Source: a virus (Duplodnaviria > Caudoviricetes). Taken from it: 59,999 bases of DNA. The stretch lies in IMG/VR virus record IMGVR_UViG_3300027631_000020, positions 1 to 59,999 of that record, one strand, 5' to 3'. A program made the position numbers and the translations under genes. Shown here in pieces: positions 4,877 to 59,999 of the stretch; position 1 is the first letter of the stretch; each line of letters starts with the position of its first letter. The notes below the pieces were generated by a model. The model was given only the letters and a program-made list of their open reading frames with translations. It had not been told where the DNA came from and did no database searches.

Positions 4877-6979
4877 ATGGCAGTAGGAGCAAGAATAACG
4901 AGCACACACCTGAGTGGTAAAACGGCAACAGTAACGTTTGTACCATATACAGGTGCAACATCAGGTACAACTCAAAACCTCGGAACTAAGGTAATCCCTT
5001 TCAATAACATCACCACACACCCGTATGGTAACTATAATCTTTACTTTGCTGAGTATGATTACACATACACGTTAAACATACCTGAACCAGATGCCTCTGT
5101 CCAATCGTTTGTTTATCAAAATAGAATGGTTAATTCTGACAACTATGGAGCTGCGTTTTTGAATTTTAATGATTTTACCGCAGAAATTATTGACTTAGGT
5201 GTTGATGTTGGTGTATGGAATAATAATAATATATATGTATTAGACAATTCAGGTTATATGTACTATTACATAGGTGTTAACAATAGTAATGATAGATTAG
5301 TAATATTCACAAATGCCACTCACGAAGAAATAGGAAGATATAGTGGTACAACTAATAGTTCAAGTAGAGATGATTTTGACGGTAAGTGGGTCGCGTTTGA
5401 AGATGTGAATAATGGTGTGTTGACTTACTCAGATGGTGTATCGGTATTTACATACACTTGGGACCCAATATTTTATACTGTTGATATTGACTGGAATTAT
5501 GATGCAACCACGTCTGATGGTACAATGATTATCGAAAAATGGGAAGTTCCGCCTTCAAGTGGGTGGACATACAATGGACCAGGTACATCACACATAGTTA
5601 ATCCAACTGATGGTACAACAACTTTATTTAAAACTTGGACCGATGGAACATACATTAGACATAAAATAACGCCATCGTCTGACTTTATTGTTGTTTTAAC
5701 TGAAACTCAAGGTACCTCAAACGCATACACAAATTTTGAAATATATGACACAAGTGGAACCATTTTAGAGACAGTTTCACTAAGTGGTGCCACATATACC
5801 AATTATAATGAACAATTTCACGGAACAAACAAATATACCGTAGTGTTCTATGATAATAATAATGTAAACACACCATATAAAATTATAAGTTATAATGGTA
5901 ACACATCGAACTTAATTGAAACATCACACGCTAGAGGTACGGAATATGAACAAAACAGTTTAGATGGAGATGGTAATTTTTGGCCTGATAATGAAGGAAC
6001 TAATGGTGGTGTTGTAATAACTTTTTATGATGCATATAATTGGACTAATTATGGTACACAAGTTACATACTGTGACATTATGTATATGTTCAATAATCAA
6101 ACATCGTTTAGTACATATACATTCGCAAACGACGAATCAAAAACAATTAATCCATATGGTCAATTAAGTGACATTTATAGAACACCGTGTGTAAATGGTG
6201 ATGGTGTTGCGTCTATGTTAACCATTATGTCGGGTAGTACTCGTATTGAAAGTATGAATGTTAATATTTCTGGTGTTACTAATTTGAATTGGCATTCATT
6301 GGGTAATAGAACTGTTGTACAAATTTTGACAAACGACAATAACAACGTAACTTACAAATATATTAATGAATTAGGTGTTGTAATTGACGAAATAAACGAT
6401 TATGGTTTAGTTTCAAACTTCGCAACAAATATGAATTCTTTTGGTGAGACCGGTTATCTTTCAATCAGAACAGAAGGTGATATTGGGTATTACGTATATA
6501 GTGGTAGTACCGGATTTACTCAAACGGGTTATTATGCCGATACAAATACCACAAATCAATATTCCTCAGGCACAAATAGGTATTATGGTGCGATGCTTTT
6601 ATATACTTTCGACCAGTTAGGTTTTAGGGTATTATCATCAACCGGAATAACTAGTGAGTTTATTTTCCCTGAGTATAATAGTTTTGACATTCGAATTGGT
6701 GAGAGTAAATTTATGTTTGTATATAATGAAACTATTGGTGGTCCAACTATAATAAGATTATATGATTTTTCTGGAACACTATTAAACAGTGAAGTAACAA
6801 GTTGGACTAATGGTTGGAGTAATTTGTATGGTGTTAGAGACAGATTTGTTGTTATGAACTATGATGGAGATAACACGGTCGAAACTTATTTAGTTAGTGA
6901 AAATACTATTACATCAGTAACAACTCAAGACTATAGTAGTGAAGAATCTACCAATGATTGGATTTACACAAATGACTAA
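4877..6979 (+). CDS. Putative virion structural protein (700 aa, beta-rich, possibly propeller-like)
   Basis: Long ORF rich in T/N/Y/G with many [ST]GxT motifs; TATTTATA at 4847-4854. Confidence 0.55.
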   Translation: MAVGARITSTHLSGKTATVTFVPYTGATSGTTQNLGTKVIPFNNITTHPYGNYNLYFAEYDYTYTLNIPEPDASVQSFVYQNRMVNSDNYGAAFLNFNDFTAEIIDLGVDVGVWNNNNIYVLDNSGYMYYYIGVNNSNDRLVIFTNATHEEIGRYSGTTNSSSRDDFDGKWVAFEDVNNGVLTYSDGVSVFTYTWDPIFYTVDIDWNYDATTSDGTMIIEKWEVPPSSGWTYNGPGTSHIVNPTDGTTTLFKTWTDGTYIRHKITPSSDFIVVLTETQGTSNAYTNFEIYDTSGTILETVSLSGATYTNYNEQFHGTNKYTVVFYDNNNVNTPYKIISYNGNTSNLIETSHARGTEYEQNSLDGDGNFWPDNEGTNGGVVITFYDAYNWTNYGTQVTYCDIMYMFNNQTSFSTYTFANDESKTINPYGQLSDIYRTPCVNGDGVASMLTIMSGSTRIESMNVNISGVTNLNWHSLGNRTVVQILTNDNNNVTYKYINELGVVIDEINDYGLVSNFATNMNSFGETGYLSIRTEGDIGYYVYSGSTGFTQTGYYADTNTTNQYSSGTNRYYGAMLLYTFDQLGFRVLSSTGITSEFIFPEYNSFDIRIGESKFMFVYNETIGGPTIIRLYDFSGTLLNSEVTSWTNGWSNLYGVRDRFVVMNYDGDNTVETYLVSENTITSVTTQDYSSEESTNDWIYTND

Positions 6980-6997
6980 AAATTAAAAAAATAGATT

Positions 6998-7608: not shown

Positions 7609-7626
7609 TTTATCAATATATTTTTG

Positions 7627-7634: not shown

Positions 7635-7697
7635 GCCCTAAGACAAACTATGACAATTCCGTCATAAGATAATAGGTCAACTAAAAAATATACAAAT

Positions 7698-16788: not shown

Positions 16789-19623
16789 ATGGCAAATTCA
16801 AATAGAGTTTTTGTATCTCCAGGTGTTTATACATCGGAAAAAGATTTAACATTCGTCGCACAGAGTGTAGGTGTAACTACATTAGGTTTGGTAGGTGAAA
16901 CCTTAAAGGGGCCTGCTTTTGAACCTATCTTAGTAAAAGATTATGACGAATTTAAATTGTACTTTGGAGGTTCATCACCAGCAAAAGACGGGGCCGGTAA
17001 CCCAAAATATGAGTTACCTTATGTTGCTAAAGCATACCTTGAAGAATCAAATCAGTTATTCGTAACAAGAATCCTAGGATTAACAGGATATAAACCAGTG
17101 AAAACTTTCGCAATTAAAACCTTGGGTGGTTTTGTTGTTGGTTCCATTACAGGTAGTACCACAGGTGTTACTATGGACCCTACTCCATTAGCGACTTTTA
17201 CGGGAAGTACATTTTACGGTGAACTTTCAGGTAAAACCGCATACGATGGTACATCCATTACAGATTATATCTACACAGAATTTAGTGGTTTCACAGGTAA
17301 TACTGGAACATGGTTCGTTATCGGTGAGGCGGACGCAGCAGACGTTGCGGCTCAGGACCCAACTAAAGAAATGATTTCACCATTTACAGGTGACCTAAAC
17401 GCAGATTCAAATTGGAATAAAAATTGGTACAACACATTCAATGATGGGTCGGGAGTTGTTTACTCTTACCTATTTGTTTGGAATGGTACTACTAATTTAT
17501 TCACAGTAACAAGATATCAATATTCGGCAACAGTAACTAATGATAATAAAGTCGTAGTTGCATTCCGTTCTAGAGGTTCTTATTCGGGACAAACATTATT
17601 ACTTGAAGTTACAGGTAACACAAGTTTTAACATTTCAAGTTCTGAGTTGGCAACAAATCCTTTCGCAGAATTTACACTTAATGTAACGGGTTCTACGAGT
17701 GGTGCAAAAACATTCACTTGTTCTTTGGACTCTACATCATCTAAGTATGTAACTAAGGTGTTGGGTACGGATGTATTCGACAAACCTAAATCTGATATTC
17801 CGGTGTATGTTTACGAAACATATCCGAATTATTTGAAAAAGGCATATGAACAAGGATTAGTAAGAGGTTTAAGTTTAACTGAAGTATATGTTTCTGAAGG
17901 AACAAACTTTGTTAGAGAATGGGATACCCCAATGTCTCCAACAGTTGTATCTGAAGTACGAGGTGGTGAAGTTTCTGACCTATTCGAAGTTATTACAATT
18001 TCTGATGGAGATGCTGCAAACGCACAAATTAAAATGTCGGTTATCAATATAAACCTTGAAACAGGTGAATTTGATTTAATCGTTCGTGATTTTAATGATA
18101 CTGACGATAACTTAGTTGCTCTTGAGAAGTTCACAAGATGTTCAATGAACCCTGACCTTCCAGGTTATGTGGCTAAGAAAGTAGGTACTTCAGATGGAGA
18201 ATATGAGTTACGTTCAAAATATATTATGTTGAATATGTCTGAAAACCATCCGGTTGACGCATTCCCAGCAGGTTTTAAAGGATTCGTATCAAATACAAAT
18301 TTCTCAGGTTCAACCTTGGGTTCACTTATGTATAAAACAGAATACTATACTGCGGGTGACGTAACAGGATTTAACTTTGACGGTTCTGAAATTCAATCAG
18401 CGGGAGATAAAGTTAGAAAAGTAACTTTAGGTCTTTCAACTCAAGTTGGATTTGATAAAGATTTATTTAAATATAAAGGAGCATCAGCTGCGGGAGCAAC
18501 TAATGGTTTCCACTTATCTGTAAACGCATCTACTATCACAGGAACAACTTTTACAACTACTCCTTACGATTTAGAAGGTCAATCAGGTGTTGACAACTTA
18601 TTAGTTACATCAGCATACCGTAAATTCACATTTGCAGTTGGTGGTGGTTTCGATGGTTGGGATATCTATCGTCAAACTAAAACTCTTGGAGATGGATATA
18701 TCTTCGGTAAACCTACTTATGTAAGTGGTCACACAACTAATGGTGGTGTGTTCAGTACAACAGTTGGAAACTCTGATTACTACTCATACCTACAAGGTAT
18801 TAACACATTCGCAAACCCTGAAGCGGTAGACATTAACATCTTCGCAACTCCGGGGATTAACTTCTACGACCATAGTTCATTAACCACACAGGCGATTGAT
18901 ATTATGGAGAACGATAGAGCGGATTCACTTTATATCATTTCATCACCTAATTTCCAAACTGCAGAAGAAGTAATTGACGCATTGGACGGTGTCGCATTGG
19001 ATACTAACTATTCAGCAACCTATTGGCCATGGATTCAGGTTAGAGACCAAGATAATGCAACTCAACTATATATTCCACCAACAGGTGAAGTTGTTAGAAA
19101 TATTGCATTGACTGATAATGTGTCTTTCCCATGGTTCGCGGTAGCGGGTTACTCAAGAGGATTGGTAAAATCAATCAAAGCGGTTAAGAAATTAACCCTT
19201 GACGAAAGAGATGACCTATACAAAGCGAGAATTAACCCAATTGCAACCTTCTCAGATACTGGTACAATTATTTGGGGTAACAAAACCCTACAAGTTAGAG
19301 AATCTGCATTGGATAGAATTAACGTAAGAAGATTATTGTTAAGAGCAAGAAAACTTATTTCAGCAGTTGCAATAAGACTATTGTTTGAACAAAATGACGA
19401 ACAAGTTCGTAATGAATTCTTGAGATTAGTAAACCCAATTCTTGAATCAATTAAGAGAGAAAGAGGTTTATATGAGTTCCGTGTTACTGTTTCAAATGAC
19501 CCTGAGGACATTGATTCAAACACACTTAGAGGTAAAATCTATGTAAAACCAACTCGTTCACTTGAATTCATTGATGTTGAGTTCATAATAACCCCAACTG
19601 GAGCATCATTTGATAATATTTAA
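16789..19623 (+). CDS. Contractile tail sheath protein (gp18-like)
   Basis: SPGVYTSEKD N-terminus; YWPWI...PWFAVAGYSRG...INPI...IIWGNKTL...RINVRRL...FEQND...KPTRSLEFI C-terminal core. Confidence 0.97.
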   Translation: MANSNRVFVSPGVYTSEKDLTFVAQSVGVTTLGLVGETLKGPAFEPILVKDYDEFKLYFGGSSPAKDGAGNPKYELPYVAKAYLEESNQLFVTRILGLTGYKPVKTFAIKTLGGFVVGSITGSTTGVTMDPTPLATFTGSTFYGELSGKTAYDGTSITDYIYTEFSGFTGNTGTWFVIGEADAADVAAQDPTKEMISPFTGDLNADSNWNKNWYNTFNDGSGVVYSYLFVWNGTTNLFTVTRYQYSATVTNDNKVVVAFRSRGSYSGQTLLLEVTGNTSFNISSSELATNPFAEFTLNVTGSTSGAKTFTCSLDSTSSKYVTKVLGTDVFDKPKSDIPVYVYETYPNYLKKAYEQGLVRGLSLTEVYVSEGTNFVREWDTPMSPTVVSEVRGGEVSDLFEVITISDGDAANAQIKMSVININLETGEFDLIVRDFNDTDDNLVALEKFTRCSMNPDLPGYVAKKVGTSDGEYELRSKYIMLNMSENHPVDAFPAGFKGFVSNTNFSGSTLGSLMYKTEYYTAGDVTGFNFDGSEIQSAGDKVRKVTLGLSTQVGFDKDLFKYKGASAAGATNGFHLSVNASTITGTTFTTTPYDLEGQSGVDNLLVTSAYRKFTFAVGGGFDGWDIYRQTKTLGDGYIFGKPTYVSGHTTNGGVFSTTVGNSDYYSYLQGINTFANPEAVDINIFATPGINFYDHSSLTTQAIDIMENDRADSLYIISSPNFQTAEEVIDALDGVALDTNYSATYWPWIQVRDQDNATQLYIPPTGEVVRNIALTDNVSFPWFAVAGYSRGLVKSIKAVKKLTLDERDDLYKARINPIATFSDTGTIIWGNKTLQVRESALDRINVRRLLLRARKLISAVAIRLLFEQNDEQVRNEFLRLVNPILESIKRERGLYEFRVTVSNDPEDIDSNTLRGKIYVKPTRSLEFIDVEFIITPTGASFDNI

Positions 19624-19928: not shown

Positions 19929-20417
19929 ATGGCAGATTTATTAATGAAAATGCCGGTTCCTTACGAACCGAAAAGAGTTAACCGATTCATACTTAGATTC
20001 CCTTCTTCATTGGGTATCAACGAATGGTATGTATCATCAGCGGCTAGACCAAGTGCGAAAATCAATTCAGTTGCGATTCCATTTATAAACACTTCAACTT
20101 ATGTTGCAGGTAGATTCGAATGGAACGAATTAAGAGTGACGTTTAAAGACCCAATAGGTCCTTCAGCATCCCAAGCATTGATGGAGTGGTTCCGTCTACA
20201 CGCTGAGTCTGTTACAGGTCGTATGGGATACGCTGCTGGGTATAAGAAAGACATTGAATTGGAAATGTTAGACCCAACAGGTGTTGTTGTTGAAAAATGG
20301 ATTCTTCAAGGAACATTTTTAACTGACTTGAACTTTAACGAACTTGATTATTCAAGAGACGATATTGCAACTATCACAGCGTCTTTACGTATGGATAGAT
20401 GTATTCAAGTTTACTAA
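19929..20417 (+). CDS. Tail tube protein (gp19-like)
   Basis: YEPKRVNRF...YVAGRFEW...W.......TG.....YKKD..L..LDPTG..VEKW.L.G.F......LDY; follows the sheath. Confidence 0.92.
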   Translation: MADLLMKMPVPYEPKRVNRFILRFPSSLGINEWYVSSAARPSAKINSVAIPFINTSTYVAGRFEWNELRVTFKDPIGPSASQALMEWFRLHAESVTGRMGYAAGYKKDIELEMLDPTGVVVEKWILQGTFLTDLNFNELDYSRDDIATITASLRMDRCIQVY

Positions 20418-28130: not shown

Positions 28131-28456
28131 TGTCAAGAGAATACTACAACAGATACGAATTATTCATAGAGGATAGTGAATTTAAAATTGTACCCGGTAT
28201 TCAAATACCAATTAAGGGAACCGATAAGTACACTTTTTATAAAAAGGGAAAAGATAGGTTAGACAAAATATCACAAGAGTATTATAATACTCCCGTATTT
28301 GGATGGTTAATTCTAATGGCAAATCCTGAAGTTAGTGGTTTAGAATTTGAAATACCGAATAATTCTCTATTAAGAGTGCCATTTCCTTTAACTACGACTT
28401 TACAAGATTATAAAAGAAGTGTAGAATTGTACAACTTATATTATGGCGAGCAATAA
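28130..28456 (+). CDS. LysM-like baseplate wedge protein (gp53-like)
   Basis: DRLDKISQEYY..P..GWLILMANP...LRVP. Confidence 0.8.
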   Translation: MSREYYNRYELFIEDSEFKIVPGIQIPIKGTDKYTFYKKGKDRLDKISQEYYNTPVFGWLILMANPEVSGLEFEIPNNSLLRVPFPLTTTLQDYKRSVELYNLYYGEQ

Positions 28457-46402: not shown

Positions 46403-49400
46403 ATGATACAGAAACATAGAATTTCCACGAATATAGGTAGAGACCAAAAGGTTACTGTCGAATTAAAACAAGACTATGACCTTTTAGAGATTTTATCTTT
46501 AAAATTTACGCAAGTTGACGCATATTCCTCAATGTGCTCAGACTACGGTGTTGTTGTGGGTAGAATCTCTGTAAACAACGGTTTGGGTATACCAAATGCG
46601 AGAGTATCTATTTTCATTCCACTTGATGATGTGGATAGTGAGGACCCCGTAATATCTAAATTATATCCATTTACAACCATTTCAGATAAAAATGATGATG
46701 GGTATAGATATAATCTTCTTCCATCAAGAAAACAACATGGGGGACATGAACCAACAGGTACGTTTCCAGACCAAAGAGATGTTTTAACAAGAGAAGAAGT
46801 TCTCGAAGTTTACGAAAAATATTACAAATACACAGCAAAAACAAACGATGCGGGTGACTTTATGATTTGGGGTGTTCCACTTGGAACACAAACCATTCAT
46901 GTTGATGTTGATTTATCCGATATCAGTTGTTTCTCATTGAGACCTGATGATTTTATCAGACAGGGAATGGGTGTTGATTCATTCAAAAATTCGTATTCAT
47001 ATAAAAGTTCTAACGATATTGATGCGTTACCTCAAATAATTTCCTTTAATCAAACAATTGAAGTTTACCCTTTTTGGGGAAATGAAGATTTGTGTGAGAT
47101 TGGAATTACAAGAACAGACTTTGATTTATCAGATAAAGGGGTTAAAATAGAACCTAAGGCATATTTGTTGGGGTCAGTTTACTCAGACCAAGGAACAAAT
47201 ACAGTAAATAAAAACTGTACTCCAAAAGGTAAAATGGGTAGAAAATGTGATTTAACTACATTCCCCGCAAAGGTTGAAATTATTAGATTTACAACCCGTA
47301 AAGACGACCTTAATAGACCAATACTTGAATTTTTAGAAATTGAGGAAGATGTCGACGATGATGGTTCATTTGTTTTACCGTTACCGATGAATTTAGATTA
47401 CATGTACACCAATGAGTTTGGTGAAATGGAAATCACCAATGACACAAATAAAGGTATACCAACAAGTTCATGTTATAGATTCAGAATATCGGTAAAAAAC
47501 GATTCTCTCGGTAGGGTTAGAACAACTGCTAGTTATTTAATACCGAACATTAGAGAATTTCAAAACGACATTGACGCATCATATGCGTGGTCAACAAATT
47601 GGACCGACTATCCGGCCGACGCACTAAACAGTACATATATTTTTAATTCCGTTTTAGGTAGTTACTATCCTGACGATTTCTTCTACCGTTTTACGTATAA
47701 TAAAGTTTATGCGGTTTCCTCATTCATGGGGTCATTATACTCTTCTGGCGGATTTAATAGACATACTTTTTTAGGTATCAAAGAAATTTCACCAAAAGAA
47801 GAAGAAGATTGTCAAAGTGAAGTTAATACCCCACCAACAAATTGGGGGTTACAAAAATTTAATTTTTCAATTCTTTTAGCAATTATCATTAACATTTTTG
47901 AAAGAATAATATACATAGCATTTGTTGGTTTAATGCAAGTATTGATATGGCCATTTCAAATATTCTATGATTTCAGAATCTATATTAGGGCATTTCGTGT
48001 TACATTAATTAACTGGAGGCCCTTCAAATTTCTCGATAAAGTTATTGAGGCAATTCAAAGATTTGGAACTGTAAGATTGGGATTGGCAATTTATCCTGAA
48101 TGTGAAAATTGTGACCAAGTAGATGCTGCTCCGGCAGTACCGGACACAACCGGAGATGTCGACCCAGCTTTAGTATATGAAATGGTTGGTTATGGAACTG
48201 CGTTAAGAGATTATACAACTATTATAATTGATTGTGATGAGTATGAATTGTATGGTGATGCACTTCTTGGGTCAACATTTACGTATGTTGATTGTACTGG
48301 GTCAACATCAACTAGTCTTTATGTTGACCCAGGATTGACAGAAACTCGATGCGTTAAATCGGGTACATTATCAACACTTGATGGGACTTATAGTTTGATA
48401 GTAGGGTGTGATGCAACCGTATCGACACCATGGTTAGACCCAAATTCAAGTAACAACGAATTAGTTTTAAGTGATGTTAACGGGTTCTCGATATACACAA
48501 CCGACCCAATAACGGGAAAGACACTTTCTCAAATTTACGATAACAATGCAACAGGTACCGTTTATATTATTAAATTAATCTCATATTTGGGTGGTACCCC
48601 ATCAACAGTATCTTACACGGGACTAAGTACAACATTAAACATCGACACATACACTGATGTTGGTAACACATATCATTTACATTCTGACAGTTCAAATAGT
48701 AACCAATGGATTGTTTGGAACGGCACATGGACTGGTGTGACATATGAAATATACGATTCAACTGCCCTACTTACCGGAACCGGCACTACTGTAAATCAAG
48801 ATGATGGTGGCTTACCATCAGGTTGTGGTTCTTACATGACAGTATATAATGAAAGCATTGTGTCCGAATCATATTGTTCTAACAATGCAGACATTGCATA
48901 CTCAGGATTATCAACTTCTAATTTAGTTAGTGGTCCCACATGTTCGAATTTTGTTGTTGGTCAAGTAATTAAACAAGTGAATAGTAATCCATGTTCATCA
49001 TGTGTGACCCATAGTGGTTATTCGGAATTTAGACGAGGGGTATTTACAATAATTCCCGCGGCGAAAGATACCAATTGGACTCATAATTTTAAGGCAATTG
49101 GTGAATATTGTAGAAGAAAACTCGTTGCCAAATTATTCTGTGAAGGGGTTGTTAACTATTCATTTACTGATAATTGGTTATCGGGTTCACTTTATTTATT
49201 CCCATTCAAAGCAAAAGTTAGATGGGATGATGAAGGTGCTCTCGACTTAAACAATAGAAGAACGAATTATTGTGGAAATTTAGTTCGTTTTAAAATAAAA
49301 GAAAAAACAACGGGAATTCCAGATAAAAGATTTTATTATAGGTCGGCAAAATTTAATGGTTCATCCTTTAGTAGATGGAGTAGTGATAGTACATTGGGTC

Positions 49401-50497
49401 ACCCAACAACAATTGTTGATTTAGGACCAAGAGATGAATTCATTAAAGAAATATGTATTGACCCCGCATTGGACCCTAACTGTTCTGTTGTTAGAAGTAT
49501 AGGTCCATCATCTTTTCAAGATTTTAAAGAGATGTTAGGTCTTTATTTAAACTATAAAATGGATACCCTTGGAACAGATGGCGGTTATACTGATATGTTT
49601 GACAACAATGGATTTGATTCAATCCTTCCATCCAAAATGGATGGTTATGTTTTAAATGGTGATATCTTGCAATTAATTTCTATAAATAATGAAGTAGGTA
49701 TTCAAGAATTTGATTTACAAAATAAAAATTACGTACCGTATTCATACCAAGTTGTTGACCCTGATGACTACCCAACATTATTTGAGTCTAGTCCGGGTGT
49801 TTGGGGACCATTACCGATAAATTTTGTTTTAGACGATGATGGTTATAGGGTTCGAGTTTGTTTAAATGAACCCGGCAGATTGACTGAATCCTCACAAAAC
49901 GTACCATTCTTTTTATGGGATAAACAGGGTACGGGGTTTGGTGTGGGAACAAACCAATCGTGGGATTATGGGTCAATTCAAAACCAACCATTACAAGGAA
50001 TGACATATAATTACAACTACACCGGAGACTCATCATGGAAATATGTATTATTCCCAATGGGTAAGGATTATGCTGGTTTGACAAAAACAATAAGCGGTGT
50101 GAGTTATAATGAAGTCACATTTAACATTGAAAGAACATCTGCGGTATACACTGCAACAGATTATTTAATTTTTAATAATCAAGAAGAAGGTTTCACTTAC
50201 TTATACGTCACTAGTTGGTCTTCAGGAACAAGTGAAGATGAAAGAGTGCAAAATGCGTTAACAGCTACGTTATATACTAGAACAGGTAACACAGGTGGAT
50301 GGGCATCACAAGCGTGGACATATGATACTGATTTTATTATAAAACCAACAACAAACAATTATGGTAATAGTGATAATCATAAACAAATTTTATCTACACC
50401 ATTTTTATTCTATTTTGGTTTGAGACCGGGTAAAACTGCGGTTGATAAGTTTATACAAAGATTCGGTCCAAAAGGAGCGTTTCCACAATCTGAATAA
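46403..50497 (+). CDS. Large Cys-rich virion protein (1364 aa) with a carboxypeptidase-regulatory-like N-terminal domain and a hydrophobic segment
   Basis: GVVVGRI....G.GIPNARVSI; TNDAGDFMIWGVPLG; hydrophobic FSILLAIIINIF..IIYIAFVGLMQVLIWPF; TATTTATA at 46390. Confidence 0.55.
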   Translation: MIQKHRISTNIGRDQKVTVELKQDYDLLEILSLKFTQVDAYSSMCSDYGVVVGRISVNNGLGIPNARVSIFIPLDDVDSEDPVISKLYPFTTISDKNDDGYRYNLLPSRKQHGGHEPTGTFPDQRDVLTREEVLEVYEKYYKYTAKTNDAGDFMIWGVPLGTQTIHVDVDLSDISCFSLRPDDFIRQGMGVDSFKNSYSYKSSNDIDALPQIISFNQTIEVYPFWGNEDLCEIGITRTDFDLSDKGVKIEPKAYLLGSVYSDQGTNTVNKNCTPKGKMGRKCDLTTFPAKVEIIRFTTRKDDLNRPILEFLEIEEDVDDDGSFVLPLPMNLDYMYTNEFGEMEITNDTNKGIPTSSCYRFRISVKNDSLGRVRTTASYLIPNIREFQNDIDASYAWSTNWTDYPADALNSTYIFNSVLGSYYPDDFFYRFTYNKVYAVSSFMGSLYSSGGFNRHTFLGIKEISPKEEEDCQSEVNTPPTNWGLQKFNFSILLAIIINIFERIIYIAFVGLMQVLIWPFQIFYDFRIYIRAFRVTLINWRPFKFLDKVIEAIQRFGTVRLGLAIYPECENCDQVDAAPAVPDTTGDVDPALVYEMVGYGTALRDYTTIIIDCDEYELYGDALLGSTFTYVDCTGSTSTSLYVDPGLTETRCVKSGTLSTLDGTYSLIVGCDATVSTPWLDPNSSNNELVLSDVNGFSIYTTDPITGKTLSQIYDNNATGTVYIIKLISYLGGTPSTVSYTGLSTTLNIDTYTDVGNTYHLHSDSSNSNQWIVWNGTWTGVTYEIYDSTALLTGTGTTVNQDDGGLPSGCGSYMTVYNESIVSESYCSNNADIAYSGLSTSNLVSGPTCSNFVVGQVIKQVNSNPCSSCVTHSGYSEFRRGVFTIIPAAKDTNWTHNFKAIGEYCRRKLVAKLFCEGVVNYSFTDNWLSGSLYLFPFKAKVRWDDEGALDLNNRRTNYCGNLVRFKIKEKTTGIPDKRFYYRSAKFNGSSFSRWSSDSTLGHPTTIVDLGPRDEFIKEICIDPALDPNCSVVRSIGPSSFQDFKEMLGLYLNYKMDTLGTDGGYTDMFDNNGFDSILPSKMDGYVLNGDILQLISINNEVGIQEFDLQNKNYVPYSYQVVDPDDYPTLFESSPGVWGPLPINFVLDDDGYRVRVCLNEPGRLTESSQNVPFFLWDKQGTGFGVGTNQSWDYGSIQNQPLQGMTYNYNYTGDSSWKYVLFPMGKDYAGLTKTISGVSYNEVTFNIERTSAVYTATDYLIFNNQEEGFTYLYVTSWSSGTSEDERVQNALTATLYTRTGNTGGWASQAWTYDTDFIIKPTTNNYGNSDNHKQILSTPFLFYFGLRPGKTAVDKFIQRFGPKGAFPQSE

Positions 50498-52254
50498 TGG
50501 ATAAGAAAAGAATCATATTACCTAAAAAGAAATTCTTCGGTGCAATCGATGAAGATTTAAGTCTAAAAATAAATTTAGATGAATCTAAAAACTTGCTCAG
50601 AGAGGGAGACAGAACAGTAATTCTTGACATGTCTGTTCTTTTCGCAAAGGAAAGAAATGAAAGTCCAAACTACAAGGTACATGGAAAACTAAAAATGGTT
50701 TTTAGAAACATATACAGTGGTGAATCGGGGTATTCCCCAATACAAGAAAAACTATATTTGATTGGTGATGGTACTGATTCAAATAATTTTAATGGATTTG
50801 TTTCATATGAAGAATTTGCATTTCAAAGACAGGATGTGAAAAGAGAATACAATACAATACCGGCAACAAGTTCTCCCGGTACGTATTCACCTAATTTATC
50901 TGTTATTGGACAAAGTACTCATAAATCAATTACCCCAATACAGGCACCATACCATAACTGGAATGTGTACCTATCATATGTTTATTCGGGTGATACAACA
51001 TATCCAATCAAATACTCATTGAGTGGTGGAACTAGTGGGGATACTTATTCCTTTGTTTCAGGTGATGGTATACCATTTAGAGTAATAGATAATGGCTCAA
51101 CATATAAATTAATATGTCCAGTTACACACGGAATTTCTGCCGGTGAATATATTGTCATTTCGGGTGGTACATTAAATAATTCGATACCACTATCGGGTAG
51201 AACATTTTTAGTAATAAGTGTTGGTGATGAGTTATATGATTCAGAAAATTATGTATTGGATATTTCAAAATCTGAGATACCATCAGGAACAACATTATCT
51301 AATGTTATACTTGGTAAAAGATGTATAAACAAATATAAATTAAACGAAACCATATCGACATATTATGTTCATAAACATAAAACACTTACGGAGGATGTGG
51401 ATTGTATTATCGATAAAATTGGATTCGAATTACCAATATGGGAGGAAGAAAGAAAATTACTACTTGAAAATTCACTCGGAACAAATGATGTTTTAGTTGT
51501 AAGGAATCGAATGGAAAGTTTAGTGTACGATTTTAAAAAACCATTTGTACTTGAAGGTTTAATAAATAATTTAGGTTATTTACCGACAGATGTTTATGTA
51601 TCAACTGTTTATGTAAACAAAAATGGGTTATTCGATTATCCACATAAGGCTGGTTTTAAATTTAATTTCCATAACTCATGGGTTGATGAACACTTTAGTG
51701 GTACCACATCATTAGAAACCACATTACCAACTCAGACATTTACGTCTAATTCAATAACATTCACAGGTGGAACTGCATTACCGATTGGTACTGTTTTAAC
51801 TGGCGCATTTATTGAATACAATAGGTCGGAATTAAAAGAAAGGGTTATCAGTGAGTCGTATCATAAAATGACCCATAGAACTACCATATTTGACCACGGA
51901 CAAGAAAGTTCATCAACCTATTCAGGTGCATCCGTAAATAATAAAGTCGGGTTATATTATCAACCACATCATAGAGTAAAACTTAGACAACTTTCTCCGT
52001 ATGTTGAAAGTTCTAATACTAGTCAAATATATGGTTTACCTCAAAACGCAAAATATTTTGAGGATGAATTATTATGGAAGTGGCATGATGTGTATGACCA
52101 TGGATTTATCGACCCAGAAGGATTCGGTACAAATTATCCATTTATTAATAACATTCATTATATAAAAAATGATATCAATTTCTATTTACGTAATGAACAA
52201 CAATACACAAATAAATCTGATGGAATTAAAAAATTGGTTAAAATAGTTTGTTAA
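50497..52254 (+). CDS. Putative virion/baseplate protein (585 aa)
   Basis: Translationally coupled (TAATG) within the structural operon; [ST]GxT-rich. Confidence 0.55.
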   Translation: MDKKRIILPKKKFFGAIDEDLSLKINLDESKNLLREGDRTVILDMSVLFAKERNESPNYKVHGKLKMVFRNIYSGESGYSPIQEKLYLIGDGTDSNNFNGFVSYEEFAFQRQDVKREYNTIPATSSPGTYSPNLSVIGQSTHKSITPIQAPYHNWNVYLSYVYSGDTTYPIKYSLSGGTSGDTYSFVSGDGIPFRVIDNGSTYKLICPVTHGISAGEYIVISGGTLNNSIPLSGRTFLVISVGDELYDSENYVLDISKSEIPSGTTLSNVILGKRCINKYKLNETISTYYVHKHKTLTEDVDCIIDKIGFELPIWEEERKLLLENSLGTNDVLVVRNRMESLVYDFKKPFVLEGLINNLGYLPTDVYVSTVYVNKNGLFDYPHKAGFKFNFHNSWVDEHFSGTTSLETTLPTQTFTSNSITFTGGTALPIGTVLTGAFIEYNRSELKERVISESYHKMTHRTTIFDHGQESSSTYSGASVNNKVGLYYQPHHRVKLRQLSPYVESSNTSQIYGLPQNAKYFEDELLWKWHDVYDHGFIDPEGFGTNYPFINNIHYIKNDINFYLRNEQQYTNKSDGIKKLVKIVC

Positions 52255-52255: not shown

Positions 52256-53053
52256 ATGGAAATACTAAGAAAAACTACCGACCAAAATATTGTACTAAAC
52301 ACAAATCAAACATTTAAAACTGATTTGGCGTGGACTGAGAATGCTGAGTCCATGGAAAAAGAAATTTTGTATGAGATTATAAACCCAACAGAGAATTATG
52401 AAACGGTTAGATATATACACGCACCATACAATAGTGGGTTAAATGTTAATCAAACAGATATATGGTTTTATTTTTATTTTTTAAATGGGTTAAATAATTA
52501 TTCAACAGGTTTGGATTATAACCATATTGGTATCACCTATCGTGAAAATTCTAAGATGTTAAAACAATCAACTGAAAGTTTTTTTAGATTGGAATTTTAT
52601 AAAACACCAAATGGTGATGCCCCAACAAACCTAAATAGAAGATTAGTTTTTGCTAAAAATCTTACACTTCCATTAGGTGAAAAACAATTCTATTTAACAT
52701 TAAACGATTACATTCACGTTCCTGTTTTTATGGGTTCAAACTATAGAAATAAGGAAAATATGTATCTATTTTGGTTTTCAGATGACAGTGCGTTTGATGA
52801 AACAACACTAACTGGTAACACATTTTACATGACTGCTAAGTTTTATAACTCAAAAGACGGTTCGGTGTTAGATTTTACAAATAAGGTATTATCGGCGGGT
52901 GTTTCCGCTAGTGAAACTGAAGATATGTATTTTAAAATGATAATAGATAGAACAGATTATTCTTATCAGATTTATCGATTTAGTGGTTCGACAACTTTAA
53001 GTCGAATAGGTGAAAGTAACGACCCAATAAAATTTTATGAAAGACGACCATAA
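52256..53053 (+). CDS. Putative virion/baseplate protein (265 aa)
   Basis: Operon context; SFFRLEFY.TP motif. Confidence 0.55.
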   Translation: MEILRKTTDQNIVLNTNQTFKTDLAWTENAESMEKEILYEIINPTENYETVRYIHAPYNSGLNVNQTDIWFYFYFLNGLNNYSTGLDYNHIGITYRENSKMLKQSTESFFRLEFYKTPNGDAPTNLNRRLVFAKNLTLPLGEKQFYLTLNDYIHVPVFMGSNYRNKENMYLFWFSDDSAFDETTLTGNTFYMTAKFYNSKDGSVLDFTNKVLSAGVSASETEDMYFKMIIDRTDYSYQIYRFSGSTTLSRIGESNDPIKFYERRP

Positions 53054-54159
53054 TGGAAAAAAACGCATATAAAATACTGAGAAAAAATATCCCCAATGTG
53101 AGATTACACTCATTATCGGGACAGTATTGGTATGATTATTTTGGTAATTGGGTACCATGGTCAGGTGATACAACCTTACCACCACAAATTGGTTATGTTG
53201 TATATAACGTAACGGGAACTGTGTCTGTTGGATATTATCGATGGTCAGGTTCAACATGGGTATCGATTTCAAAAGCGGTGGCCATGGGTAGTTATGACAT
53301 TCCGTTATTCTTAGAGAGTTCTGCGGATGAAATGGGGGTTATGGTTGGTTTCGATGGAAATATGGAACAGGTTGAACAAATCTGTAATTTTTCATATACC
53401 CAAACCGGAAACACCGTTCAAGTTTATAATACTGTAGACTCGAGTAAGGTATCTGAAATTCACGTTATTAATTTTACGGTGAATTGGGGTGACGGAACAA
53501 CCAACACGTTAACGACCCACACTGGTACGACTTTAAATTCGATTTCCAAGACTTATACCACTACAGGTGTGAAAACTATTGCAATATCAATTAACACCCC
53601 GTGGATGGACTTTAAAATGGAAAAAAAGGTAACGGTACCGGCAAACATCACAGTTGCAGACCCACTTGGTGTTTTTAGTGGTTTTACCGTACCATATACA
53701 ACAATTACGGGACAAACCCTTGATTATTTGACTGATTTAGATTACACTAATAACACGGGTAACACAATCTTCAATTACGCATCGATGGGTAAAAGTAGAA
53801 TCGACGAGAAAAAACTTTACGGTTCGAACACATATTCGGGAGTAACAACAGGAACAACATCTGGAATTGTATATAGTGCATATACCATAGATAATCTTTA
53901 TTTTAAAGATTTTGCCGATGGAGTAACAACTATTACGGGTGCGACTTCAGGTTTCACTAAGGAGGAAGTTTTTAATTTAGTTCTCACAAGGAACGAACAT
54001 TTCTTAGGTTTTATTGATGAACCAACCATTTATTCGGACATTTTTGTTGAAAGAGGAAAACAGGGGGTTATGGAAAAAACATTAAGATTATCTGAAATTG
54101 ATAACACCGGGGAAATGGAAATCTACGGAAATGGATATTTTAATATAAGAAAACAATAA
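53053..54159 (+). CDS. Putative virion protein with a PKD-like domain (368 aa)
   Basis: FTVNWGDGT...KTY...G...I PKD signature; very [ST]GxT-rich. Confidence 0.6.
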   Translation: MEKNAYKILRKNIPNVRLHSLSGQYWYDYFGNWVPWSGDTTLPPQIGYVVYNVTGTVSVGYYRWSGSTWVSISKAVAMGSYDIPLFLESSADEMGVMVGFDGNMEQVEQICNFSYTQTGNTVQVYNTVDSSKVSEIHVINFTVNWGDGTTNTLTTHTGTTLNSISKTYTTTGVKTIAISINTPWMDFKMEKKVTVPANITVADPLGVFSGFTVPYTTITGQTLDYLTDLDYTNNTGNTIFNYASMGKSRIDEKKLYGSNTYSGVTTGTTSGIVYSAYTIDNLYFKDFADGVTTITGATSGFTKEEVFNLVLTRNEHFLGFIDEPTIYSDIFVERGKQGVMEKTLRLSEIDNTGEMEIYGNGYFNIRKQ

Positions 54160-54184: not shown

Positions 54185-55102
54185 ATGGCAGTAGGAAGTT
54201 ACGGAATTATAAGACCAGCGGATGTTTCTCCGGAAGATGTGGAAATTTACTTTCACTATGTATCGGGAAGAACTAGTGACGCGGCTGCGACTTTGAAAAG
54301 ACTTAATACGGGTGATGTATTAACACCTGTATTTCATAATGCAAATACAACAGACGACACAAGTGCACCTGACGTAGAAATTTTAGGTGGTTTGTATAAT
54401 TTAAAATTAACATCTGCGGATTTCTCAGATTTGGGAATCTACACTTTACATGTTAGACCAAAACAAATTCGTACAACAATCACCGATTGTGGAATTTTAG
54501 CGTCATTACCATCAGTTAGGGGATTAGTTATTGATTTAAGTAATGTACCAGCGGGTGACAGAAATAAATTTACCCCACAAGGTTTGGTGGGATATAGAGT
54601 TGAATACATTAATTCATCTGACAATAAGAAGACATCAAATTTTTATAGAATTGTAACATCTTCTTTTTATTGTACACCAATAGTAACCAATTTAACCAGT
54701 ACATCACAAAAGTCGATTAGATATCAATATAGTGAGCAAGCAACGAATTTGATGTTCTTAACTGTTACACCATCTTCAGCACCTTCGAATAAACCAAATA
54801 CGGTTCCTTTCATCGGTACACCCTCACAAAAAATTATTCTATCTAATACATACTTTAATCCAACAACAATTGAAATTGAAATGGTTGAACATGATTCATC
54901 CACAATTGCACATGCGTTGTATGGTAATCAGAGTAAAGCAGTCTCACAAGGTATCTACACGATATATGACAATAATAATAACATCTATAGACAATACAAT
55001 CTTTACGAAGTTAAGGACGAGTTTAATGAAACATTATACGAAGTTCGTGAAGAAAGAAACGATATTGATGAGACCTTAAATTTTGATACGATTACCGCAT
55101 AA
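54185..55102 (+). CDS. Putative virion/baseplate protein (305 aa)
   Basis: TATTTAT at 54166-54172; TAATG-coupled to the next gene. Confidence 0.55.
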
Positions 55103-58100
55103 TGGCAAAAACAAAGGTACCAAGTCAGGCCGCAAATGGTGGGCAAACTTTTAGCGATAATTTAGTTGGTAGACAAATTACCAGCGGAAGTTCGGCGCTT
55201 ACTAACACAAGTTTTGATATCGATAAGACGATACCTGAAAAGGATGCCAAAAATTTTAAAAACAACCCATTTTCTGAGTTTTTAACTTTAGATACTTTAA
55301 AAGAAGAAAAATCGGCAGTTGTCACTCAAACAAAAACAAAACAGGAAAAGAAATCGTCTATTCGTTTTAAGAATAACAAAAGAAACGCGGACAAATCTTT
55401 ATTCGGTTCATTAAAAGATAGAATTTTAGTTTCGGTAACAAGAATCATCAATAAGTTTCCCGGTGGGTTAAGTGTTGAAGGTGGAGGTCCGATTGGTAAT
55501 AATTCATATTCAGCGTTTAACGCGTCTTACGATTATAGTTTAAATAGAACAACTTTTTATGTACAAAGAGCCAAACTCTTTAATCCATTCGATATAACTT
55601 TAATCCAACCTAACAGTGTAATTAAACCAACAACTGAAAATGAGATTAGAAATTTATATTCTTCTTATGGTAAGTATGTTGCGGTTTTTAACGGTGTATC
55701 ATATCCGATAATTCAATATACGGAACCCAATTCCTCGAATGAAATTAAATTTGTTATTCTTGGTAATTCATTTAGTGGTTCAACAACATATTCTGACAAT
55801 TTTTTAATTAGACCGAATGATGGAATTATTGAAGAGTTCTTCAATGGATTAGATGATGTTGAAGAGTCATTATTAAATAGAGAAACAAACCCAATATACA
55901 CCGCCAGTTTTGAAATTCCAATGGATAGTTCTGACGGTACAAGAACAACATTACAAAATATTGAATATACGTGGCCTTTATCTTCGGATAATTGGAATAT
56001 TAGAATTTCAGGTCTCGATTATGAATCGTATCTTGAAAATTTAAGTGATGTCTCTGACCAAATAGATGATTATAAATCTAATTTAATGGTTAGATTTTTA
56101 GCGTCTCCACAGTTATTTGAATTTGATACTGATGATAAAAAGGCGGAAAGTGTTTTCCAATTATATGGTCAAAGTTTTGATAGGGTAAAAAAATATATTG
56201 ACAACATTGCTCATATGAGAAATGTAAGTTATGACGGTATTAATAACCTACCTGATATATTATTAAAAAACCTATCTCAAAATTTGGGACTATCAAGTAT
56301 TAAATTATTCGATGAGAAATCGTTGGATGAAATTTTATATACTAGACAGGATTCATCATATGGTGGTGTTTCTAAAGGTTTTAATTTAGAAGATGCCGAA
56401 TATGAGTTTTATAGAAGATTATTGGTTAATTTGGCGTTCATTTTTAAATCAAAAGGAACGAGAGCGGGTATTGAATTTTTCTTAAAATTCTTAGGTGCTC
56501 CTGAACCATTAATTAAACTTGACGAATACATTTACCGAGTTACATCCATTCCCGGTAGTAACGATTTGGAACAAGACATATATGATGTCATCCAAGGTGA
56601 AAAAACATATACAACTGCAATATTCAATATTACGGGTTATACCTATGACTCTACTACGGTAACGGGAGCAACAAACTTCAATAGAGATGGTTACCCTGTT
56701 AATCCCGACACACTATTACCAAGAAAGGCATTCAACGAAACGGACGAAATATTCTTTGAAAAGGGTTCAGGTTGGTACGACATTACGTTAGACCACCGTA
56801 CACCAACAATATTAGATACTGAAAATTCCATTTTAACTGGTTTAACAAAAACAATTAAAACTAAAAACAAACCATACACTTATGGTGAGAATTATTTTGA
56901 TGTGTTTAGAACGTTGCCAGGTTTAGATACGGGATATGGACTTAAAACAGAAATTGATAACAGAAAAACTCATTCAGTTGAGGACGATTCGTTATTAATA
57001 TTAAATAGAAAAAACATAAACGTTCATTTATCTCCATCAAGAGGTATTGATTATGACATTTATAGAAAAAGTAGAAATTTAAATTTATCTTTTGGTACAA
57101 ACAATAGTTTATTACCACAAACAGGTGTCACCTTTGCTCAATTCATTGATAATTTTATTCACAGTGTAATTAAAAATTCTAACACAATTAGATATAAAAA
57201 AAATTACATTGTACTTGAGGACATTTATAGAGATTACATATCCCAAGCCGGATTTAGTCCATATGGGTTTATCGACGTAAATGAATTTGTTGATAAAATT
57301 ACACCATATTGGGTTCAGTTAGTTGAACAATTAGTACCTGCAACGACATTATGGACGGGTGGTAACTTAATAGAAAATAATCTATTTGGTAGACCAAAAT
57401 ACCCTTACATATTCGATTGTCAACCAATGGAATTTATTGAAAGTTTATATCCTGAGTTTGAAAAAACAATTGAAGAGGATTTAGAAACTTTACTTGGTGA
57501 AGAGGATAACTTTAGAAGTTTAATTAATTTAACGGGTGTTACATATTACCCCGTAATTGAAATAGATGGGGTTGTTTACGGTGGACCAACATATTCAGAA
57601 TTAACAACAGGAATGACTGTTGTTGTTAGTGGAACTACGAACACCACAAATAGTGCTCAGTTATTTAATCCATTTCCAATGGATGACTGTACTGACCTAA
57701 CAAGTAATGATAGTGTAAATTTAGCACTTATCTGTGATTATAAGGATTACTTAGAACCCGACATCGTTAAAATAAAACAACTATGGTTAATTGCGATAAG
57801 TAATTTAATTAGTTCAATTACAATAACAAGATATACTGCGGGATATGAAGACTATGACCCATTCTTAGGTACAACAGGTCAAACATATACAACTGAAGAG
57901 TTACCAATGGTTAGTTATGAACTGTTTACTGATGTAAATGGTCAAGAGATGATTAGATTCTCATCTATAAAATATGGTATTGGAGATTGTTCGGTAAAAG
58001 ATTATTTTGATTACAGATTCGAGGCAGATTATGAAACAACTAAAAATGTTGTTGAAATGAGTGTCGAGGTGAGAGGAGATGGTCAATACTATTGTAATGA

Positions 58101-59999
58101 ACCGTTGGATTGTATATTGGTTTCCGATTTATACATTGAGGTTATTGGACACAAATCAGGTGTTCAAAATCATAGTGGAAATTGGCCATTTTACATTTAT
58201 GCAAACTGTGTATCTGGTTATAATCAAAATGCAGACATACACATTGAGAGAGTACCGGGTGAAGACTGTATCTTTAAATTGACAGGTATAACTGAAACTG
58301 ATGTTATTGATTTTGATATCATTGACGGTGCAAATAAAGAAGTTAAATTTAAAATAGAAGGTTTACAAGCCAAAGTTGAACATGACCCATGTCCATTACC
58401 AAGTGGTAAAAGTCACGTTGAATTATTCGAACTAATAGGTTTCCAAGGAACTTCAGGAAATAGTATTTCATCCATATCAGGTGCCACATTCTGTGACAAT
58501 TATACGGGACATACAATTCACCCTAAAGTTGAATATAGAAGCAACTTCAATTATGGTTTAAAATGTGATACGGATGTTTTAGTTGTCACAACTGGAATAA
58601 CAATTAACAGTGGTACCACAAATACTGATGTTGAAACTTTTATTTCAAACGGAGATATAATTAAAAAAAGTGTTTGTGACCTTCTTGTTGATGATTACAT
58701 TTTATCTGCCGAATACAAAGATTGTAACCAATCATCAAATCAACAATACCAAGATGCCCCTGAAAATGGATATTCGTTTACATATGAATATGTTAAATTA
58801 AAAGTTACCGATAAAGATTGTCTTGCATCTATTAAGAAGAGTGTAATTACAGGTTTAACGACTAATGGAATTTATGAAGTATTTGAAGTTTTACCAACAA
58901 CACAACTTAGAGTTTATACGAATAAGTTTATTGAGAATTTTGGGGATATAACAAATGGTAAATATCACTTTGATGATAGATTCCCCGAAGAATTACAAAG
59001 TAAACCAACAGATTTTATTGAACCATGCTGTGACCATCCAAAAGAGTTATATAATCATGGAGATTATTTAATTAATCAATACGGATACCCAATCGAAGTG
59101 ATTGCTGTCGATTTAAATTACTGCGAATCAAACCTATATTTTAATATAAATGTTGAGAAGGACGGAACACCATTAGGTAATGGTAGTTTCTTAGTAGTGT
59201 TCAATGGTAACTCAAATGAACAATTACTAATGAAACACACATATAGTGTTCATCCGGGTCTTGACTTTAAATTAGGTCAATATTATATTGACCCTGAACA
59301 TTGTCCAACTGAACCAACAAATGAAGAATTAGAGATTTCGGTTTTTGGTGAGTGTATAGATTGTGATTTTGATATCGATGTGAACATATTAGATTGTAAT
59401 TTTGAAATAGATGTTGATGTTATTTTTAATGAGACAACACCAACACCAACATCAACTAGTACACCTACTGTAACACCAACGGCGACTCCTACAGGAACGG
59501 GAACAAATACACCGACTAGTACGGTAACCCCAACAGAGACCCCAACGGCAACCCCTACGGAAACACCAACAGGAACTAGTACACCTACAGCAACCCCTAC
59601 GGAAACACCAACAGCAACTCCCACAGGAACGGGAACAAATACACCGACTAGTACTCCGACAGCGACTCCTACGGAAACACCAACGGCAACGGGAACTAGT
59701 ACCCCAACGGGAACTGCAACTCCTACGGAAACACCAACAGGAACTAGTACACCTACGGAAACGCCTACAGGGACTAGTACTCCTACGGAAACGCCTACAG
59801 GGACTAGTACACCTACGGAAACGCCTACAGGGACTAGTACACCTACGGAAACGCCTACAGGGACTAGTACTCCTACGGAAACGCCTACAGGGACTAGTAC
59901 TCCTACGGAAACGCCAACAGCAACTCCAACGGATACACCTACTGAAACACCTACAGCTACCCCAACGGGAACTGCAACCCCTACTGTAACACCTACGGG
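55102..59999 (+). CDS. Very large baseplate wedge/fibre protein (gp7/baseplate I-like N-terminal part), running off the window end; not in the ORF track
   Basis: ATG at 55102 ([23 protein letters not shown]); frame checked at several points through to the end; [22 protein letters not shown] motif; C-terminal Thr-Pro tract. Confidence 0.75.
59731..59910 (+). repeat. 30-bp tandem repeat encoding [10 protein letters not shown] within a longer Thr-Pro tract (from about 59434 to the end)
   Basis: ACGCCTACAGGGACTAGTAC(A/T)CCTACGGAA occurs 5 times at 59761-59910, plus a degenerate copy at 59731. Confidence 0.95.

Follow-up and report, generated by a model that had tools for sequence, protein, structure and literature searches.

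The window analysed here is a stretch of 59,999 nucleotides, positions 1 to 59,999 of the IMG/VR virus record IMGVR_UViG_3300027631_000020 (Duplodnaviria; Caudoviricetes), and the subject is a four-residue peptide, [Ser/Thr]-Gly-x-Thr ([ST]GxT), that recurs in its large structural proteins. In its fuller form, hydrophobic-[Ser/Thr]-Gly-x-Thr, this is a short linear motif that selection maintains on the outer regions of certain virion proteins. The set comprises an insertion in the tail sheath, the proteins encoded after a gp6-like baseplate gene, a 700-residue protein and, in relatives, the major capsid protein. On the outer virion proteins of this phage and its relatives the motif is about four to fifteen times as frequent as chance would give. 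The reading that we favour, and to which we would give slightly less than an even chance, is that the motif is a sequon for O-glycosylation, the attachment of a sugar being something that we infer.

The window belongs to a T4-like myovirus with a G+C content of 32-36% and contains 34 long open reading frames (ORFs). Pfam or PHROG matches identified PolB, an SNF2 helicase, the tail sheath, the tail tube, the baseplate hub, gp25-like and gp6-like proteins, a gp32-like SSB, a UvsX/RecA-like protein, a 5'-3' exonuclease, DnaB, NrdB and NrdA. With the exception of the sheath, the large proteins carrying the motif have no Pfam or PHROG family match. The nearest named phage is Microcystis phage Mel-JY01, with a sheath identity of 33%, and the close relatives are IMG/VR contigs. 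One of these, G001 (310,691 bp, 93% complete), encodes orthologues of the window genes that are 52-94% identical. A second lineage is represented by G012 (232,514 bp, G+C 27%, 88% complete) and a third by G009 (321,283 bp, complete).

The 34 ORFs contain 91 copies of [ST]GxT against 21.6 expected. Expectations throughout are composition-based, and empirical p values come from 2000 shuffles per ORF, so that the lowest possible p is 0.0005. Five ORFs exceed their expectation at this lowest p, namely those for the 700-residue protein, the sheath, a 585-residue protein, a 368-residue protein and the last ORF of the window. Local richness in Thr, Gly and Ser as the cause is ruled out by block shuffles. 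Shuffling within blocks of 10, 15, 20, 30 or 50 residues, 1000 times each, gave means of 28.5 to 25.5 with standard deviations of 4.6-4.9 (28.5 ± 4.9 for the 10-residue blocks), and no shuffle exceeded 44 copies, placing the observed number at a z of about 13. The comparison with shuffles proposed in the initial annotation was thus made, and the excess survives correction for both global and local composition. When all 8000 patterns of the form a-b-x-c were ranked, SGxT (46 against 9.6, p 2e-17) and TGxT (45 against 12.1, p 3e-13) were each independently among the top four, and only PTxT and TPxP, which derive from Pro-Thr linkers, were comparable.

The distribution over the proteins is sharply uneven. 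The genes located below in the form start..end all lie on the plus strand. The hand counts in the initial annotation for the five richest proteins were exactly reproduced. The 700-residue protein (4877..6979) has 11 sites against 1.7 expected (p 0.0005), with site codons starting at nucleotides 4913, 4949, 4961, 5342, 5558, 5783, 6230, 6269, 6500, 6509 and 6641; its orthologue in G001 has 12 against 1.9. The 944-residue tail sheath (16789..19623), identified by matches to sheath families, has 12 against 1.6. These had been placed in a variable insertion and not in the conserved core, and indeed all 12 fall at residues 121-649 (nucleotides 17149-18735) while the Pfam core begins at residue 659. 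The 585-residue protein (50497..52254) has 8 against 0.54, and five orthologues at 70-73% identity have 10-11 each. The 368-residue protein (53053..54159), which contains a PKD-like beta-sandwich, has 11 against 0.97. The last ORF (55102..59997), which is open at the end of the window and encodes more than 1632 residues, has 15 against 2.9 at residues 225-1253, and an orthologue at 47% identity has 23 against 3.9. The several copies reported for the other large structural proteins amount to 7 in a 1589-residue protein encoded after the baseplate-hub-like genes (23361..28130; 1.6 expected, p 0.001), six of them at residues 763-938; 6 in the 1364-residue protein encoded directly 3' of the gp6-like gene (46403..50497; 1.6 expected, p 0.005), whose orthologues have 9 and 5; and 5 in a 1928-residue protein (28443..34229; 1.5 expected) at residues 1120-1839, where the excess is weak (p 0.016). 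A 265-residue protein (52256..53053) has 2 against 0.2, its orthologues having 4-5. In the capsid orthologue the sites are at residues 134, 202, 234 and 410 of 576.

Equally informative are the proteins without the motif. The gp6-like baseplate wedge protein of 610 residues (44517..46349) serves as an internal negative control, with no site against 0.42 expected and none in all four aligned orthologues or in five further loci printed gene by gene. The 162-residue tail tube (19929..20417), the gp13-like neck protein and the gp25-like protein also have none. A recount likewise gave no copy in NrdA, NrdB, SSB or SNF2 and a single copy in each of PolB, the exonuclease, the RecA-like protein and DnaB, as had been noted, the last two being Walker A TGKT. 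Between the two richest genes lies one for a 305-residue protein (54185..55102) with 1 site against 0.32 expected. This protein is highly conserved (74-94% identity) and nearly motif-free in all lineages, with 1, 1, 1, 1 and 0 sites in five aligned orthologues and 0 in the five further loci, and it may be buried or lie outside the virion. The more general proposal that the motif marks outward-facing virion proteins stands in part: the sheath insertion and the other proteins above are enriched, but neither the Laminin_G_3 proteins of G001 (below) nor the protein of the first ORF is. The latter, encoded at 2-4804 outside the range considered in the initial annotation, is a Pro-Thr-linker protein with 7 sites against 4.4, which is not significant.

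The motif is directional and has three fixed positions, a hydroxyl residue at 0, Gly at 1 and Thr at 3. Before GxT only Ser or Thr is enriched and no other residue. At position 1 only Gly is clearly enriched, the excess of Thr there (52 against 30.8) reflecting Thr-rich runs, and at +3 Thr alone is enriched, with Ser slightly so (27 against 17.7). Position x is unconstrained, Pro occurring there at chance level. The pair [ST]G without Thr at +3 was found 183 times against 201.8 expected, the reversed pattern T-x-G-[ST] 18 times against 21.6, and [ST]Gx[VI] 27 times against 29.2. Position -1 is hydrophobic in 56 of 84 sites (67% against a background of 33%) and +4 in 48% of sites; position -2 has a mild preference for Ser/Thr, and the flanks are otherwise unconserved beyond -1. 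Codons are mixed at all the fixed positions, Ser being encoded by TCN and AGT and Thr by all four ACN, which places the selection at the protein level and rules out a motif in the DNA. A shared repeat or domain is also ruled out, since all-versus-all BLASTP gave nothing below E 0.09 and hhalign a probability of 0.5%; the motif-rich proteins have no detectable sequence relationship to one another, as the initial annotation had supposed. Walker A sites make up 2 of the 91 copies (the RecA-like protein and DnaB), and the P-loop is not the general context, the strict form G-x4-G-K-[ST] being present once among the 34 ORFs, outside the nine motif-rich ones.

Such a pattern might be a structural habit of this lineage, with no modification, in which fast-evolving outer domains reuse a compact connector. 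In this geometry the Ser/Thr would end a strand or helix, the Gly would take up a left-handed turn position and the Thr would open the next element. We consider this possible but doubtful. Turns of this kind are well known, both as ST-turns or Asx-turns with Gly at strand ends and as type I' or II' two-residue beta-hairpins. A two-residue hairpin exposing a pair of hydroxyls would agree with the hydrophobic preferences at -1 and +4 and with the Gly in the turn. The secondary structure around 23 sites was examined in AlphaFold models of the sheath (predicted local distance difference test score, pLDDT, 81.7; predicted template modelling score 0.76; best match T4 gp18) and of the 368-residue protein (pLDDT 66.3, a moderate value; match to a PKD-like sandwich fold). 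Roughly 7 of these 23 sites join two strands through a turn, 3 come directly after a helix and 2-3 directly before one, settings that would all suit a connector. Another 4 are internal to strands, and loops hold the remainder, three of which fall in stretches modelled with low confidence. The models thus place the sites in at least four backbone contexts, and a single turn of the ST-turn plus Gly hairpin type does not account for all of them. Asp and Asn are the usual structural stand-ins for Ser/Thr in capping turns. Here they are not used at position 0, since [DN]GxT is at chance (14 against 16.4), and Val and Ile are not enriched at +3. Distant homologues of the sheath carry DGEN, NGEV or DSES where the hairpin of site 266 aligns, indicating that the turn needs no hydroxyls.

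The physics of proteins is also the same in all lineages, so that a connector favoured for structural reasons should appear in comparable beta-rich proteins elsewhere, and it does not. T4 (100 ORFs, 70-169 kb) has 24 copies against 19.5 expected, with none in the sheath or gp34. The structural region of Mel-JY01 has 8 against 7.7, with none in its 817-residue sheath or in proteins of 1352 and 2255 residues. An excess of the motif is therefore no general property of T4-like virions. Within G001, eight Thr- and Gly-rich Laminin_G_3 proteins, which are beta-sandwiches, have 9 against 8.6. One region of Flavobacterium phage immuto has a mild excess (39 against 22.4, or 1.7-fold). The 207 ordinary low-Thr ORFs of G001 contain 26 copies against 24.3, so these proteins are neither enriched in the motif nor avoid it.

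A second alternative, to which we give little weight, is that the motif is a binding loop or docking site for an anion such as phosphate, for a surface polysaccharide or for a decoration protein. The phosphate loop of flavodoxins has the form Thr/Ser-x-Thr-Gly-x-Thr. The requirement for both hydroxyls and Gly and the directionality of the motif suit a binding loop, and the longer form [ST]-x-T-G-x-T is found 17 times against 1.3 in the nine rich ORFs; the many lectin-like Laminin_G_3 proteins in these genomes are possible readers. However, the six-residue excess is largely a by-product of the TGxT excess together with the mild Ser/Thr preference at -2, and the varied backbone contexts speak against one preformed loop.

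Relatives of the window proteins allowed the history of the sites to be followed. In five aligned families Ser and Thr replace one another at position 0 and x varies, for example SGGT to TGNT, TGQT to SGRT, and TGLT to TGRT, TGET or SGVT. The family of the 368-residue protein (68 sequences, comprising that of the window and 67 homologues at 53-91% identity) has a mean of 9.6 sites against 0.94 expected. At its site 209 the first residue is Ser in 39 and Thr in 27 sequences, at site 295 x is Thr in 37, Ala in 14 and Ser in 12, and motif starts fall in 22 alignment columns in at least 5 of the 68 sequences. The sheath (46 sequences, that of the window and 45 close homologues) has a mean of 9.3 against 1.5. 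Several sites are near-invariant, sheath site 300 being present in 45 of 46 sequences and site 295 of the 368-residue family in 67 of 68, as a structural role would predict. Elsewhere positions turn over, which such a role would not predict. The orthologues of a 721-residue protein in three lineages, at 25-32% identity, have 14, 11 and 12 sites against 1.2-1.6 expected and share only 1-5 site positions, although alignment noise at such distances may understate the sharing. The density of sites is maintained while their positions move.

The excess extends well beyond the window. In 70 further IMG/VR loci the motif was found 2951 times in total against 398.7 expected, each locus having at least a 3.8-fold excess, and in the five loci printed gene by gene the on/off pattern is kept, with the gp6-like and 305-residue proteins at 0 and their neighbours rich. 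Genome-wide in G012, SGxT (94 against 24.6) and TGxT (79 against 23.3) are the two top patterns. G009 is not enriched overall (142 against 133.8), with six of its proteins enriched, and across 150 sheath representatives at 33-72% identity the excess drops with rank, in a patchy manner, from 4.6-fold to 1.3-fold. The strict, directional, hydroxyl-dependent pattern on virion proteins of one clade points to a recognition motif read by a lineage-specific factor, and the varied backbone settings, together with a density kept while positions move, favour such a motif over a structural connector.

No glycosyltransferase had been seen in the window, and a Pfam scan of all 34 ORFs agrees. The search of the rest of the genome for sugar genes that had been proposed was carried out in relatives only, and it was productive there: G001 encodes many such genes, and one pair of genes recurs in five near-complete motif-bearing genomes. 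The Pfam scan of G001 covered 256 of the 279 within-locus ORFs of at least 90 residues, 23 window orthologues and 14 border-crossing ORFs being left out. It gave GT2-type enzymes, a fusion of PF11397 with GT7, two more GT7 proteins, UDP-galactopyranose mutase and UDP-glucose dehydrogenase, as well as a carbamoyltransferase, methyltransferases and a 2-oxoglutarate (2OG) oxygenase. When 22 sugar-related ORFs of G001 were compared by BLASTP, only a GT-A-like one was found in both G012 and G009. This gene (G001 265470-266249) encodes 259 residues with a conserved Asp-Asp motif and a Pfam GT2 score of 24.9 bits, just above the cut-off. Directly upstream is a gene for a 355-residue protein, and the synteny is kept in the three lineages. 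A profile of three orthologues of the 355-residue protein matches PDB 8xsg (AmGGT) with E 5.7e-22, positions 46-339 aligning with residues 25-321, and by this sequence match the protein is a clear homologue of the Agt/AmGGT family of GT4 enzymes. The two genes are the only sugar genes that the three deeply diverged motif-bearing genomes have in common. They are also adjacent in G005 and G006, giving 5 of 5 near-complete motif-bearing genomes (G001, G012, G009, G005 and G006), although this co-occurrence is confounded by descent. Both were absent from the three T4-like genomes searched (Mel-JY01, T4 and immuto). Around the pair the sugar genes differ, G012 having its own non-orthologous cassette of two GT2, a GT25, a GT10, a sulfotransferase and an APS kinase in a list drawn from 133 of its 167 ORFs and possibly incomplete.

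The first candidate for the writer was a different one, PF11397, a GT60-like polypeptide GlcNAc-transferase family; GT60 is described in a review as polypeptide-modifying. The distribution of PF11397 differs from that of the motif. The family occurs in G001, G005, G006, G008, G009 (which is weakly enriched) and G010, whereas G012, which is 88% complete and strongly enriched, lacks it, as do G013, G011, G007 and Mel-JY01. A tblastn search of 50,697 GenBank phage records with the 799-residue PF11397 protein gave matches only in four distant jumbo phages at 27-28% identity. Glyco_transf_7N gave no match in the five records searched and none in the control genomes either, and was thus uninformative.

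The hydroxyl requirement would fit any O-linked modification, for instance phosphorylation, acylation or nucleotidylation, and the relatives do encode a carbamoyltransferase, methyltransferases, a radical SAM enzyme, a sulfotransferase and an APS kinase. The three diverged motif-bearing genomes have no such enzyme in common, however, whereas they do share the two glycosyltransferase-like genes, and the scan of 256 G001 ORFs turned up no protein kinase family. Modification by something other than a sugar therefore seems improbable to us. It is the conserved glycosyltransferase-like pair that makes O-glycosylation the most likely form of a modification.

If the motif is an O-glycosylation sequon, it would be both recognition and acceptor site for a phage-encoded glycosyltransferase that acts on virion proteins during or after their folding in the cytoplasm of the host. 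The first sugar would be placed on the Thr at +3 or on the Ser/Thr at position 0 and then lengthened, so that the finished particle would be coated with glycan. The candidate writers are the adjacent pair, the 259-residue GT-A (GT2-like) protein and the 355-residue Agt/AmGGT-related GT4 protein, and lineage-specific sugar cassettes may elaborate the glycan. In its fullest version the proposal would be of a clade-wide cytoplasmic O-glycosylation, begun by the GT-A protein and lengthened by the Agt-like GT4, that coats sheath, capsid and outer baseplate, with the number of sites selected and their positions moving as in the glycan shields of animal viruses; this we put forward only tentatively and think rather unlikely to hold in every part. 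The sequences themselves establish the motif, with its specificity, conservation and turnover, and the occurrence of the gene pair alongside it. We infer that a sugar is attached, and likewise the residue that carries it, the enzyme that writes it and the role of the coat.

Several observations weigh against glycosylation. The sugar genes may serve DNA modification instead. AmGGT itself is described as unable to use glycopeptides, taking only free oligosaccharides (PMC12159676). The record of the phage was covered to 60 kb, so the enzymes are taken from relatives, and PF11397, the first candidate, fails to co-occur with the motif. The co-occurrence of pair and motif is confounded by descent because 55 genes have the same three-genome distribution; the search covered just three genomes without the pair, and in immuto, one of the three, a mild 1.7-fold excess persists in the one region examined. 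Non-virion proteins do not avoid the motif (26 against 24.3 in G001). Motif columns are barely better conserved than others (0.789 against 0.763 in the sheath), and in the five aligned families the conservation is 0.868 against 0.769 for Gly and 0.819 against 0.744 for Ser/Thr. In the models about 7 of 23 sites are plain hairpin turns, so that at some sites the role in structure is real. Finally, the Pro-Thr linkers, with 89 copies of TPT in the window, would be a more conventional acceptor of sugar.

Those linkers lie at 2-4804 (residues 469-1280 of the first ORF, which also has Laminin_G_3 domains) and at 59437-59997 (the last ORF from residue 1446). Linkers of this kind are classic carriers of O-glycans in other systems. 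TPT has the strongest tripeptide excess in the window (89 against 7.6), 44 copies being in the first ORF and 40 in the last, and in G001 seven ORFs have at least five TPT, one of them 179. G001 also encodes a 2OG-Fe(II) oxygenase (L031:14788-15660) and the fusion of PF11397, a Skp1-type GlcNAc-transferase family, with a beta-4-galactosyltransferase-like domain (L028:13589-15988). By analogy, the 2OG oxygenase and the PF11397/GT7 fusion recall hydroxyproline glycosylation and could act on the Pro-Thr linkers.

Glycosylation of phage particles has a precedent in mycobacteriophages, where glycosyltransferases of the phage have been proposed to add glycans to structural proteins of the virion (Freeman et al. 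2023, Cell Host Microbe, as summarised in PMC12619734), the glycans being at the C-termini of capsid and tail-tube subunits according to the same summary (PMC12619734). The phage described here would share phage-encoded glycosyltransferases and virion targets with that system. It differs in that the tube has no sites and in that the sites are internal, spread across many proteins and of a defined four-residue pattern. C-terminal sites of the mycobacteriophage type were not seen in the tube or in the capsid orthologue, whose last site is at residue 410 of 576.

Another parallel is the NGT/Agt system, which is soluble, cytoplasmic and sequon-directed, as the one proposed here would be, with an initiator and an Agt elongator of GT4 type to which the 355-residue phage protein is homologous. 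ApAgt of Actinobacillus pleuropneumoniae, a relative of AmGGT, is described as lengthening glucose chains on adhesins in the cytoplasm (PMC12159676). The partner differs: here it would be a small GT-A protein, and the listed Pfam matches of the 256 G001 ORFs scanned include no NGT-type family. The sequon of that system, Asn-x-Ser/Thr, is not enriched in the nine motif-rich ORFs (117 against 117.3). Bacteroidota have a general O-glycosylation sequon, Asp-(Ser/Thr)-(Ala/Ile/Leu/Val/Met/Thr), whose glycosylation takes place outside the cytoplasm, away from where phage proteins fold. The likeness is in a three-position Ser/Thr sequon on many unrelated proteins and in the likely host phylum, and this motif is not enriched in the nine ORFs either (29 against 39.2). 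Compared with ST-turns and hairpins, the present motif agrees in its hydrophobic flanks and its Gly at the turn but is not interchangeable with Asp/Asn, occurs in several backbone contexts and is absent from the beta-rich proteins of other phages. In the literature searched, on the motif and on phage virion glycosylation, no description of an [ST]GxT sequon was found. What is added here is the strict four-residue form, the account of what the motif is not, the evidence of turnover and a named candidate gene pair.

Glycosylation of phage particles is so far known from a few mycobacteriophages, where no sequon is defined. If the sequon reading is right, virion glycosylation would become predictable from metagenome sequence, a glycan shield might be a general strategy of freshwater phages, and protein engineers could gain a compact tag for O-glycosylation in the cytoplasm. 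Should the structural reading hold, the motif would be an unusually clean, clade-specific way of building protein connections.

The phages that carry the motif form a large clade of uncultured freshwater T4-like jumbo phages whose hosts are probably Bacteroidota. The lineage is abundant, as judged from the 852 homologues of the 368-residue protein and the 5730 sheath homologues among 8000 candidates scored. In the 50,697 GenBank phage records searched by tblastn, no cultured relative was found for the 368-residue protein, the GT7-plus-lectin protein, the GT-A protein or either Agt-like protein. G001 encodes a type IX secretion system sorting domain, glutamine synthetase, ClpP, a ClpB-like ATPase, a sigma factor and glutaredoxin; the sorting domain is at the C-terminus of a protein at L043:500-2407 and is a cue to a Bacteroidota host. 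In content, as distinct from sequence, G001 resembles the moraphages, a group of jumbo phages from aquatic habitats described from 25 genomes as large as 307 kbp, with predicted Bacteroidota hosts and four core groups of glycosyltransferases (PMC12619734). The two are alike in genome length, T4-like core, glutamine synthetase, Clp, sigma factor, glutaredoxin, Bacteroidota cues and several glycosyltransferases (PMC12619734). For the four core groups the moraphage paper raises the possibility of DNA glucosylation first; its passages on them leave the target open and mention no peptide motif (PMC12619734).

The Laminin_G_3 proteins of G001 are themselves arranged in an array. About a dozen neighbouring genes from L035:7214 to L036:1491 (within L028-L043) each end in this lectin-like domain, with no enrichment of the motif, and beside the array are two glycosyltransferase genes of GT7 type, one of which carries a fused Laminin_G_3 domain. 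Small Laminin_G_3 genes of a similar kind are found in G012. Other genes of G001 include those for SmpB (L028:1100-1528), a SET-domain protein (L033:58-357), a cyclophilin (L029:18117-18548) and a 475-residue protein with a Cas12f1-like TNB domain of the TnpB/Cas12f type (L031:1900-3327). G012 (L220-L231) encodes translation proteins (Glu/Gln-tRNA synthetase, a fragment of Ala-tRNA synthetase and peptide deformylase), an RNB-family ribonuclease resembling RNase II/R, DnaJ, Hsp20, two sigma-70 factors and a PolIII-alpha-like protein with an intein match, besides the sulfation cassette formed by its sulfotransferase and APS kinase. In the window itself, a 124-residue DUF5856 protein, named in PHROG as a starvation-inducible regulator, is encoded at 35130-35504 between the structural and the replication genes.

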